Shown here: piece by piece, positions 17,280 to 19,901 of the stretch | How the letters are laid out: each line of letters begins with the position of its first letter | Position numbering within the stretch: the first letter of the stretch is position 1 | Source of the DNA: Desulfatiglandales bacterium | Lineage (GTDB): Bacteria > Desulfobacterota > DSM-4660 > Desulfatiglandales > Desulfatiglandaceae | DNA: 64,000 nucleotides | Direction: 5' to 3' | NCBI GenBank assembly: GCA_963662465.1 | Contig: OY759599.1 | Span: forward strand, 3,680,001-3,744,000 | Translations under genes and position numbers: made by a program | The notes under the pieces: generated by a model | The model's input: the letters and a program-made list of their open reading frames with translations, nothing else | Database searches by the model: none | What the model was told of the DNA's origin: nothing

Positions 17280-18437
17280 ATGTCTTACGACCTTACCGAA
17301 GAACAGGAAATGCTCAAGGAAACCGTTGCGCGTATTGCCAAAGAACAGATTGCCCCCGGCGCCTCGGAAAGGGATGAAAAAGCCGAATTCCCATGGGACA
17401 TGGTGGCGTTGCTGCGGGAAAACGCTCTTTTCGGCGCTGACTATCCGGAAGAATTCGGGGGGTCCAAGATGGGACTTTTTTCCCTATGTCTGATCATCGA
17501 AGAAATCGCCAAGGTCTGCGCTTCCACCTCCGTGGTCCTGCTGGTCCATGAGCTGGGCGCCATGCCCATCATGCTGGCCGGCAACGACGAACAAAAGAAA
17601 CGATATTTTCCAAAATTGGCAAGCGGTGAAAACCTTATCGCATTCGGCCTCACGGAACCCAACGCCGGCTCCGATGTGTCCGGTCTTAAGACCAAGGCCG
17701 TCAGGGACGACGACGATTATATCATTAACGGAACCAAAACATTCATCTCCCATGCGGACGTGGCGGACGTGGTATGTATCGCAGCCAGAACCAATCCTTC
17801 CGTGGCGGGGCCAAAAGGCACCGGCATATTTATCGTGGACAAGGGCACGCCGGGTTTCAGCATCGGCAAGCATGAGAGCAAAATGGGCGTTCGCGCTTCC
17901 TCCACCGTGGAAATCATCCTGGAAGATGTCCGTGTGCCGGCAAGAAACATTCTGGGGGGCGAAGCGTTGGGCTTTCCGATTCTCATGAAAACACTCGATC
18001 TGACCCGCATCCCCGTGGCCAGCCAGGCCGTTGGCATTGCTCAGGGCGCCCTTGATTTTGCCGTCAACTACACCAAGGAACGGACCCAGTTCGGCAAGCC
18101 TCTTTTCTCTTTTCAAGGTCTTCAGTGGATGATGGCCGATATGACCACCCAGGTAGAAGCAGCCCGACAGCTGACCTACAAGGCCGCCGCCGTTTTCGAA
18201 AAATTCCCTAAAAACCTGGATCGTCTCCCCAAGGAAGCGGTTCGGCAATCGGCCATGGCCAAACTCTTCGCCGGGGAAACCGCCATGAAGGTCACAACGG
18301 ATGCGGTTCAGTTGTTGGGCGGTTATGGTTACGTCAAGGAATATCCAGTGGAAAGAATGATGCGCGACGCCAAAATCACCCAGATATACGAAGGCACCAG
18401 CCAGATTCAAAAGGTGGTGATTGCCGCCACCCTGTAA
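17280..18437 (+). CDS. Acyl-CoA dehydrogenase
   Basis: Motifs [49 protein letters not shown]. Substrate not determinable here. Confidence 0.95.
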   Translation: MSYDLTEEQEMLKETVARIAKEQIAPGASERDEKAEFPWDMVALLRENALFGADYPEEFGGSKMGLFSLCLIIEEIAKVCASTSVVLLVHELGAMPIMLAGNDEQKKRYFPKLASGENLIAFGLTEPNAGSDVSGLKTKAVRDDDDYIINGTKTFISHADVADVVCIAARTNPSVAGPKGTGIFIVDKGTPGFSIGKHESKMGVRASSTVEIILEDVRVPARNILGGEALGFPILMKTLDLTRIPVASQAVGIAQGALDFAVNYTKERTQFGKPLFSFQGLQWMMADMTTQVEAARQLTYKAAAVFEKFPKNLDRLPKEAVRQSAMAKLFAGETAMKVTTDAVQLLGGYGYVKEYPVERMMRDAKITQIYEGTSQIQKVVIAATL

Positions 18438-18450
18438 ATCCCCCGAGCCA

Positions 18451-18494
18451 CAAACCGGACGCCCGCCGTTAATATCGCGGGGGCTTCCGGTTTG
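18451..18494 (+). terminator. Hairpin after the acyl-CoA dehydrogenase gene (copied at about 19859-19902)
   Basis: Inverted repeat CAAACCGGA...TCCGGTTTG directly after the stop codon. Confidence 0.5.
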
Positions 18495-18529
18495 TTCCGA
18501 ATTGTATTCAATAATCCCGATAGTCCGAC

Positions 18530-18660
18530 AAAATGTTCTCCCTCGGGGCTCCTGGATCTCATTGTAACCGCTGAATGCCCACATCGATGGATGACTGACG
18601 GCTCCGGCACGTACCATATTCGTATCTATATAGACCATAATGATGCGGTATTAATCAAAG
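18530..18660 (-). pseudogene. REP-associated tyrosine (Y1/HUH) transposase fragment
   Basis: Minus-strand peptide VYIDTNMVRAGAVSHPSMWAFSGYNEIQEPR matches the RAYT catalytic-Tyr region (YIxxNxVRAGxVxxPxxW). No full ORF. Confidence 0.7.
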
Positions 18661-18830
18661 TCAGCCGGGCTCTGGACCGAAAGCACCGGTCTGTTCAGGA
18701 CAAGGGTTTCGTTTATATGATGCCGTCGGACCATCCCGCTTCGAGGGGGCTCGGGGATGGCAACATCCCCCGGCTACCCGGCAATCGAAATTTACTCCCA
18801 GCAAGGTACCATAAGGCATAAATTAAAGTA

Positions 18831-18870
18831 TTGACAAAGGTATGTACAATGTAAATAATATTGGTACAAC
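18831..18870 (+). promoter_or_regulatory. TA operon promoter with overlapping operator inverted repeat
   Basis: TTGACA(18831)-17 nt-AATAAT(18854); TGTACAAT...ATTGGTACA inverted repeat straddles the -10. Confidence 0.65.
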
Positions 18871-18901
18871 ATATATAAATATTATAATTGGAGGTGCCTA
18901 A

Positions 18902-19159
18902 ATGCCTGGTGTAAAAACTGCGATATCATTAGAAAAGGATTTATTCAATCAAGTCAATCAATTAGCCAGTGACTTACATGTGTCACGGAGCAAATTGTTT
19001 ACTCTAGCCGTCAAAGATTATCTAAAAAAACAAGAAAGTAAAAAGCTGCTGGTTCAACTCAATGCGGCGTATAGCGATTCACCAACCGAAGAAGAAAAGA
19101 CAATTTCAAAGGCCATGAAGAGAAAACAGCTCAAAATTGTGGAGCAAGAATCATGGTAA
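18902..19159 (+). CDS. Ribbon-helix-helix antitoxin (MazE/CopG-like)
   Basis: KTAISLEKDLF...VSRSKLFTLAVKDYL RHH pattern; SD GGAGG; overlaps the toxin start. Confidence 0.85.
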   Translation: MPGVKTAISLEKDLFNQVNQLASDLHVSRSKLFTLAVKDYLKKQESKKLLVQLNAAYSDSPTEEEKTISKAMKRKQLKIVEQESW

Positions 19160-19506
19160 TAAAACAAGGTGAAATATATTGGGTAGACCTAGGTGAACCA
19201 AGTGGGTCAGAACCTGGATATAGGCATCCACATATTGTAATTCAAAATAACATTTTTAATTCGAGCAATATAAATACAGTTGTTGTTTGCTCTTTAACTA
19301 CAAATTTAAACAGAGCAAAAGCCCCTGGTAATGTCCCTCTTAATAAAGGGGAAGCTAATTTGCCGAAGAAGAGTGTTGTTAATGTTTCTCAAATATATAC
19401 CGTCAACAAAAGCGACCTTTCTGAGAAAATCGGTCAAATATCTGAGAAAAGAATGTATGAAGTTCTTGAGGGACTAAGCCTTCTCACTGAGCCAAGGGAT
19501 ATTTAG
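19153..19506 (+). CDS. mazF: PemK/MazF-family endoribonuclease toxin
   Basis: Motifs QGEIYWVDLGEPSGSEPGYRHPHIVIQNN, TVVVCSLTTN, SVVNVSQIYTVNK. Confidence 0.92.
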   Translation: MVIKQGEIYWVDLGEPSGSEPGYRHPHIVIQNNIFNSSNINTVVVCSLTTNLNRAKAPGNVPLNKGEANLPKKSVVNVSQIYTVNKSDLSEKIGQISEKRMYEVLEGLSLLTEPRDI

Positions 19507-19533
19507 GTAACTCAAATCAATAATAACAAATAC

Positions 19534-19654
19534 TGCTAACAAGTTACTGCACCAGACCCCAAGGGGCTACCTGTATCGGCTTTAATAAGTTTCGTGTTTA
19601 CGTGCATTTAATTAATACTGTGTCACCTTGGGGTAGGTGAGCATGGCGTTAGGC
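19534..19654 (+). other. Integron attC recombination site (121 bp) closing the TA cassette
   Basis: R'' TGCTAAC, 5 nt, L'' ACTGCACC, inner stem ACCCCAAGG/CCTTGGGGT, L' GGTGAGC, 5 nt, R' GTTAGGC; located just after the mazF stop. Confidence 0.75.
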
Positions 19655-19901
19655 AGCCGGCCATGGCCAAACTCTTCGCCGGGGAGACCGCCATGAAGAT
19701 CACGACCGATGCGGTCCAGCTGTTGGGCGATTATGGCTACGTCAAGGAATATCCGGTGGAAAGAATGATGCGCGACGCCAAAATCACCCAGATATACGAA
19801 GGCACCAGCCAGATTCAAAAGGTGGTGATTGCCGCCACCCTGTAAATTCCCGGGTTTACAAACCGGACGTCCGCCGTTAATATCGAGGGGGTTTCCGGTT
19901 T
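19648..19901 (+). pseudogene. Diverged direct duplicate of the acyl-CoA dehydrogenase 3' end and terminator (copy of 18240-18493)
   Basis: Collinear at a constant offset of 1408 bp; encodes [31 protein letters not shown]...IAATL*; most differences are synonymous. Confidence 0.92.

Follow-up and report, generated by a model that had tools for sequence, protein, structure and literature searches.

Organization of the locus

The DNA analysed here (the window) comprises 64,000 nt of contig OY759599.1, positions 3,680,001 to 3,744,000, in GenBank assembly GCA_963662465.1 of a Desulfatiglandales bacterium (G000); coordinates are those of the window unless a genome or locus handle precedes them. The locus under study consists of an intact acyl-CoA dehydrogenase gene followed by an insert which ends, on its right, in an integron recombination site (attC) and in a second, orphan copy of the gene's own 3' end. 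Inside the insert lie scraps of a RAYT gene, of an integron integrase gene (intI) and of a group II intron, and a MazEF-type toxin-antitoxin cassette to which the attC belongs (Table 1).

Table 1. Features of the dehydrogenase locus and its insert (RHH, ribbon-helix-helix)
Feature	Position	Strand	Basis
Acyl-CoA dehydrogenase gene, intact, 385 aa; target gene	17280..18437	+	Pfam N, M and C domains above cut-off
Upstream repeat copy: functional tail (65 codons, stop, hairpin); starts GTTCGGC, attG-like	18240..18493	+	sequence comparison
Inverted repeat (arms of 15 nt, 93%), a likely terminator for the dehydrogenase gene	18450..18495	+	repeat search
RAYT/Y1-type transposase gene, internal scrap, frameshifted	18501..18639	-	91% nt identity over 112 bp to the G010 gene
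Integron integrase (intI) relic	18637..18746	-	93% and 92% nt identity to two parts of G010 intI
Group II intron 3' end, last 40 nt; marks a lost att site before the cassette	18743..18782	+	up to 100% identity to intron ends in arrays
MazEF-type toxin-antitoxin gene cassette, ~870 bp with its lost head	18783..19648	+	homologous cassette in G009 (L024)
Sigma-70-like promoter of the cassette	18831-18859	+	11/12 match; 5 found, shuffles predicting 3.3
Antitoxin, RHH type, 85 aa	18902..19159	+	RHH just below Pfam cut-off (19.2 vs 20.5)
PemK/MazF-family toxin, 117 aa, 7-nt overlap with antitoxin	19153..19506	+	PF02452, E 1e-28, 100 bits
attC; bottom strand is the - strand; crossover G|TT at 19648/19649	19534..19654	-	fold and covariance model
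Orphan copy of gene tail and hairpin; starts GTTAGGCAGC; three amino acid replacements (S>P, V>I, G>D)	19648..19901	+	
92-bp tract without differences between copies (partner 18348-18439)	19756..19847	+	gene-conversion or crossover tract
TAXI TRAP solute-binding gene, flank	19972..20961	+	TIGR02122; adjacency to dehydrogenase derived

The gene-tail repeat and the attC site

The two tails form a direct repeat of 254 nt, 92% identical and ungapped at an offset of 1408, which comprises 65 sense codons and the stop codon (186/198 identical) followed by 56 nt with a hairpin (47/56); in all, 21 of the 254 sites differ. Identity begins at the GTT at which attC crosses over and stands at background level immediately 5' of it. 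Orthologues of the dehydrogenase gene in seven genomes of the genus are 80-91% identical at the nucleotide level, and an NCBIfam search of the protein found no equivalog up to its cut-off. The tail holds a YEG motif, the glutamate of which is the catalytic base in the acyl-CoA dehydrogenase family, so that losing the tail would kill the enzyme. The target's 3' end is duplicated in such a way that the gene is restored, as with gene-restoring integrative elements.

On its bottom strand the attC folds into an R box, a 5/5 spacer, an L box with an extrahelical base and a further stem. The R'' and R' boxes are complementary (CTAAC pairs with GTTAG in the fold), and the L''/L' stem, which contains two non-standard pairs, is accompanied by the extrahelical base and an unpaired central spacer. 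A covariance model trained on 33 attC sites from other genomes matched the site at full length on the minus strand (43 bits, E 1.8e-9), one of two matches in the 64 kb. Folding energy, which is not a defining need of an attC, was no better than that of shuffled sequences (z -0.74; 42 of 200 shuffles equally good); the AT-rich variable loop dominates it. The next attC is 43.6 kb off and no intact intI is near, the intI relic lying 0.8 kb upstream. The locus would fit the label of a single attC site lacking an integron integrase (SALIN), but probably without a lone-cassette origin.

Most of what an earlier reading from the sequence alone (the original prediction) had claimed of these parts was borne out: the attC is real, the dehydrogenase gene is intact, and the duplication starts at the crossover GTT. 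It had also described the duplicate as gene end plus terminator; the gene tail is present, and the hairpin at 18450..18495 is a putative terminator which the terminator scan did not call.

Two further observations concern attC sites. At L120 1174-1298, in a record titled Paludibacter, lies an attC with arms nearly identical to those of 19534-19654; this attC family crosses phyla. More attC sites, in an array on the minus strand, were seen at 63210-63295 and at G000 3745855 and 3747483, with no intI match nearby, an arrangement like that of a cluster of attC sites that has no integron integrase (CALIN).

Contents of the insert

The cassette proper is made up of open reading frames and an attC. 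A homologous cassette in G009 (77% identical) starts GTTAGCA directly after an attC arm, and this head is the exact complement of the R'' box. In the insert the intron end is followed by an A, as expected if the first six bases of the cassette were lost with the intron. A PemK/MazF toxin follows and overlaps a putative DNA-binding antitoxin, which is the layout of type II MazEF/PemIK pairs; the closest solved structure to the antitoxin is MazE6 (E 8.5e-6), and the toxin fell far below the cut-offs of the NCBIfam MazF equivalogs. In G009 the cassette sits between an LD-carboxypeptidase gene and the next host gene (L024 2248-2320), another solitary remnant, with the right half of an attC before it and a different attC after it.

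To the left of the cassette, the RAYT scrap matched at 65% over residues 132-172 by tblastn; the G010 RAYT protein scores above the cut-off of Pfam Y1_Tnp and below that of NF047646. RAYT genes neighbour intI in G004 and at two further loci of G000, and 4 of 60 intI loci had a RAYT match. A 17-mer at 18499 was considered as the end of an insertion sequence (IS) and rejected as an internal chance match to a repeated element. The intI relic carries a stop codon at 18651-18653 and the last residues of the protein, fused to an earlier piece after a deletion of ~200 bp, and the catalytic motifs are gone; imperfect homology of 14 bp (18694-18707) marks this deletion junction. The G010 intI to which it was compared scores 441 bits on TIGR02249 (cut-off 265). 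The intron remnant overlaps the intI piece by 4 bp. Across the G000 arrays, group II intron copies begin six bases into attC cores. Rfam gave no match in 17000-21500, as expected for an intron piece so short. Apart from the right-hand junction with the orphan tail, the three junctions in the insert are short-homology joins, the one in intI with its imperfect 14 bp and the others with 3-4 bp. The pieces are ordered and oriented as in a complete integron: intI points away, and the cassette with its attC lies behind.

Judged by these pieces, the 1408-bp unit is a patchwork and not a single cassette, likely the decayed form of a whole integron: the scraps lie inside it, and the true head GTTAGC(A) maps to 18783. 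The idea of a cassette that carries its own homing arm is accordingly not supported, as the cassette of ~870 bp begins at 18783 with intI and RAYT scraps to its left. Nor is an integrase absent, as had been supposed, for a relic lies at 18651-18746 in the insert itself, and other parts of the genome hold five intI matches that exceed the family cut-off. The RAYT relic that had been named holds for about 18501-18639, the rest of the stretch so called being made of intI and intron pieces. The MazEF module was recognized correctly, with PF02452 above its cut-off in the toxin and a MazE6-like antitoxin, though its RHH score is just under the cut-off.

Two more collapsed intI relics were seen in G000, at 2927.5-2928.9 kb and 4722.4-4725.5 kb, beside toxin-antitoxin-like pairs and with no gene-tail duplication; the pairs look YefM/YoeB-like and helix-turn-helix plus HipA-like, labels given by sequence appearance.

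Short-read support and a second strain

An assembly artefact, which the original prediction had named as a possible refutation, has in its favour the presence of a repeat and nothing more, and is extremely improbable. Of the 254 sites, 21 distinguish the copies. Run X1, which may be the source sample, has unique contigs at depth 28-32 that bridge 18410-18770 and 18754-19785, and between them all unique junctions, with the 92-bp identical tract collapsed into one piece at double depth (58). The junction of attC and gene was also bridged in run X3, from another study, by a contig over 19349-19687 with one difference (depth 3.3).

Sample S2 (runs X3 and X5) yielded pieces of 18350-20044 that differ at 10 of 1307 bases, compared with 123 of 2609 in flanking pieces; these counts come from unlinked contigs of depth 2-5, one flank count having been obtained by subtraction across two runs. 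If the contigs are from one strain, they hint at a recent exchange in which lineages ~95% identical passed on the collapsed form by homologous recombination from flank to flank.

Divergence and ancestry of the two tails

Coding differences between the tails are unevenly placed, 12 of 12 falling in the first 108 nt and none of the 12 in the next 92 (p about 0.001-0.006). Nine of the 12 are synonymous, against 38-44% expected under in-place duplication with one decaying copy (p 0.011-0.033), and all derived coding changes of the upstream copy are synonymous. The copies differ from each other at 12 coding sites and from G010 at 11 and 14. Because of the synonymous excess, and because the distance between the copies is about that of either copy to G010, the tails are probably two functional alleles of different lineages, one of which has since decayed. 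Divergence is slightly raised 5' of the GTT (18000-18239), as might be expected had the donor tract been longer; 14948-15247 shows a comparable dip. Synteny was no help in telling resident from donor, as the TAXI gene sits behind another ABC operon in 4 of 4 relatives examined.

Origin of the right-hand junction

The anatomy of the locus, the position of the junction, the deletion junctions and the pattern of differences were observed. The explanation that we favour, at a probability of roughly 0.55, is that the integrase IntI crossed attC with a site in the gene (attG) on the right and homologous recombination closed the left, with a whole integron as cargo. A donor lineage would have carried an integron just downstream of its dehydrogenase gene, in the order RAYT, intI, attI and array. 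Its DNA would have entered a cell with a different allele, where IntI would have joined the folded bottom strand of attC to the GTT at codon 321. The left side would then have closed by homologous recombination inside the gene, for which a circle would have used its 254-bp arm and a linear piece some longer homology; this would leave the gene whole and one tail orphaned behind attC. Either before or after that closure, short-homology deletions would have removed nearly all of the RAYT gene, intI, attI, the other cassettes and the intron; the self-promoted toxin-antitoxin cassette would have been retained, likely because losing it is harmful. A circular and a linear donor give the identical product, and a 1408-bp circle is possible solely if collapse preceded the move. 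Recruitment of cassettes out of DNA that is linear and single-stranded is described in PMC12614218.

Several properties of the gene site agree with an attC x attG crossover. Both copies and the four closest orthologues have GTT, thus GWT, at -1..+2, a weak point at 16 GTT per kb. Scored with a matrix of 62 cassette heads, the gene site is in the top 2.0% of genomic GTT triplets. With CAG at +6..+8, the four closest orthologues match the CRGM hot-spot motif at three of its four bases, and at +6..+9 the orphan copy reads CAGC (an exact match), the orthologues CAGT and the upstream copy CAAT. Insertion by IntI at attG and excision at nearby sites have been demonstrated experimentally, insertion at rates of 1e-2 to 1e-4 with induced IntI (10.1101/2022.09.11.507474). 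Taking together the favoured explanation, the strict circle described below and part of the in-place models, it is likely, by about two chances in three, that IntI made the right junction. The crossover of attC with a chromosomal site that the original prediction proposed, homology starting at the crossover GTT, is supported as the most likely origin of that junction.

A number of observations weigh against this explanation. By the cassette-head matrix the site is only joint third among the gene's 16 GTT. At +3 and +9 the orphan copy reads A and C, in contrast to the C (4/4) and T (7/7) of same-genus orthologues; a clean G|TT crossover leaves the gene's bases to the right of the G, so that neither base is expected. 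These two changes raise the orphan site to the top 0.15% in likeness to cassette heads and make its CRGM exact. Since the change at +9 is the S>P replacement, the orphan version is not a functional allele. If IntI acted, the base at +3 must be a synonymous variant and that at +9 a later mutation. The CRGM motif was established for IntI1 in E. coli (10.1101/2022.09.11.507474), and the three remaining junctions of the insert are all short-homology joins. A tree of the 108-nt tract had no supported branch, and resident and donor copy could not be assigned. Neither an empty site nor a full-length precursor nor a second case turned up in the loci of relatives, in G000 or in the metagenome loci.

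The original prediction, whose IntI event is kept as the likelier reading, did not consider a short-homology join, which explains the two odd bases after the GTT. On that alternative, a real if minority possibility, the tails again come from two lineages, and the right junction arose without IntI, by deletion or homology-facilitated illegitimate recombination, where the head of the next cassette and the gene agree at 10 of 12 positions (5 perfect); that the site resembles an att core would then be the cause of the homology and no sign of IntI action. It accounts for the A at +3 (and the C at +9) without mutation, and a natural cassette head one base off these 12 is present in L130. The intI deletion used a similar imperfect homology of 14 bp, other joins here 3-4 bp, and PMC5361080 invokes the mechanism for displaced 3' remnants in Vibrio. 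The breakpoint, however, must land by chance in the 12 bases after the sole surviving attC, and the route is, in that same text, orders of magnitude rarer than homologous recombination, compared with 1e-2 to 1e-4 for attG insertion.

The circle as originally proposed, in which the collapsed 1408-bp unit was excised by IntI in trans, homed by its 254-bp arm and may still do so, is unlikely. It would give the identical end product, intI genes are present in trans, and the 92-bp identical tract flanked by diverged sequence agrees with a crossover within the arm. Against it, the unit is not a cassette, and no joint skipping the 1408 bp was found among those listed in four runs, contigs being prone to lose rare variants. 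In the second strain the two hairpins and the two junctions are shared at ~99%, as replacement from flank to flank would leave them rather than a new single crossover; the raised divergence at 18000-18239 would, subject to the similar dip elsewhere, fit a donor tract longer than the arm. Quite unlikely, too, is a tandem duplication in place, by unequal attC x attG crossover or slippage between sister chromosomes and without foreign DNA, followed by loss of the second integron copy, perhaps via the rearrangement that brought the TAXI gene. A breakpoint of that rearrangement does lie within ~60 bp of the right end of the repeat; its partner (G000 7894285-7894657) has no integron remnant, and the synonymous excess between the copies, with only three non-synonymous changes in the orphan despite pS ~0.3, argues against one copy having decayed in place.

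Recurrence in this genome and in relatives

G000 holds 157 structural attC candidates, about 70 of them plausible besides 19534-19654, and only the latter has a duplicated host-gene tail behind it. No second case was found among 38 other attC calls at the loci of relatives (some of them the same site twice), among 120 candidates in 31 of 60 intI loci, most of which are cut by contig ends so that the array end is often missing, or among 126 candidates in 57 of 60 loci found by covariance model, the 60 having been chosen from 150 listed of 362 matches in 151 genomes. These sets from relatives (284 in total) overlap slightly, and many candidates are on short contigs. Flagged hits were rejected as IS at attI and attC, duplicated cassettes or palindromic cassette heads. 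At the orthologue loci (L010-L026, L039-L118 and L155-L169) there was no duplicate tail, hence no recurrent use of the target. Among the matches listed, the dehydrogenase and TAXI genes were not adjacent in any of the other 40 genomes, and a metagenome scan for the empty site gave 80 loci, the best at 83% amino acid identity and none informative.

Integrons targeting acyl-CoA dehydrogenase genes were considered and rejected, two other intI behind such genes having no duplicated tail. These two intI (G000 3286139-3288643 and 4979400-4982224) lie just downstream of other acyl-CoA dehydrogenase paralogues; one of the loci is shared with G010 and is thus old, and G010 holds a different intI type at the first of them. 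Other structures seen in the same scans were perfect 1609-bp tandem repeats, each ending in attC, at an attI (G000 4412357-4425229); the same IS-like element directly after the GTT of an attI-like site and of an attC (L212 16593 and 19731, in G170, where the array runs in the same direction as its intI); and palindromic cassette heads starting GTTC after attI-like or attC sites in three unrelated genomes (L244 14051, L256 9320 and L291 6391).

Flanking region

Relative to G010 and other relatives, rearrangement breakpoints lie at 19902-19962 of the window and at G000 7894285-7894657, where the TAXI gene was parted from its upstream ABC operon. The TAXI gene is separated from the TRAP permease by ~12.6 kb of mobile DNA (20962-33615) with, among others, a TnpB/IS605-type gene (21318-22406) and a tyrosine recombinase gene (25891-26682); the two adjoin in G005.

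Implications and comparison with known systems

Laboratory work has established recombination at attG, an event that should break genes; the present locus looks like a natural junction of attC and gene in which the gene survived through the tail of a second allele and the cargo was a whole integron. If IntI made it, this would be a transposase-free route for integron platforms between related lineages, an open question for chromosomal integrons. A bolder and doubtful extension is that a sedentary integron mobilises its whole platform without transposase, IntI joining an attC of its own array to a GTT in the host gene upstream of intI. The captured gene tail might then serve as a homing arm with which the integron lands in the orthologue of a related species and repairs it, a proposal we hold no less doubtful. 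Were it true, it would explain how chromosomal integrons change lineage yet stay behind the same housekeeping gene, and some apparent SALINs would be collapsed integrons. Whatever the mechanism, this one case indicates that integron decay around a toxin-antitoxin pair can end in a lone attC. Integrase relics of this kind are probably too short for profile searches, and some of the SALINs counted as lone insertions may be of this sort.

A literature search found no report of an attC-bounded gene-tail duplication, most subscription journals being outside the search. The nearest relatives are the attC x attG insertions and SALINs of Loot et al. (10.1101/2022.09.11.507474), with which the locus shares a single attC far from an intact intI, a junction at a GWT in a host gene, the orientation expected for bottom-strand recombination and, in the orphan though not the upstream copy, the right-hand motif CRGM at +6..+9. 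There a lone cassette disrupts the gene without duplication, whereas the dehydrogenase gene is unbroken, has a duplicate tail probably derived from a second allele, and is followed by what is likely a decayed platform containing scraps of intI. Like the CALINs attributed to loss of intI in PMC4889954, the locus keeps an attC-bearing cassette after the decay of intI, but it has one attC only, an intI relic of 96 coding bases and a boundary formed by a gene-tail duplication. By the pseudogene search reported there, 95% of CALINs have no intI pseudogene; a relic of 96 bases is probably too short for such a search. The homology-facilitated illegitimate recombination of PMC5361080 likewise combines one homologous anchor with one non-homologous junction and displaces the old 3' part downstream; here the non-homologous junction falls on the point where attC crosses over. 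For Xanthomonas, a foreign intI at the same locus behind ilvD is described in 10.1101/2025.06.18.660453. Chromosomal integrons have type II toxin-antitoxin cassettes that resemble the present one in the two-gene operon with its own promoter, the attC at the end and the RHH, MazE6-like antitoxin, whereas this one, a putative toxin-antitoxin pair, remains alone after the collapse of its array.

Integrative elements that restore their target gene include e14 in icd. The arrangement of intact gene, element and displaced 3' piece is also that of ICEclc in tRNA-Gly (PMC5812530). This locus differs from that integrative and conjugative element type in having no dedicated integrase or att pair, only an intI scrap, a repeat of 254 bp at 92% identity, and an integron attC at one end. 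In its working it thus resembles gene-restoring integrative elements without belonging to them, having neither an integrase of its own nor a recurrent target.

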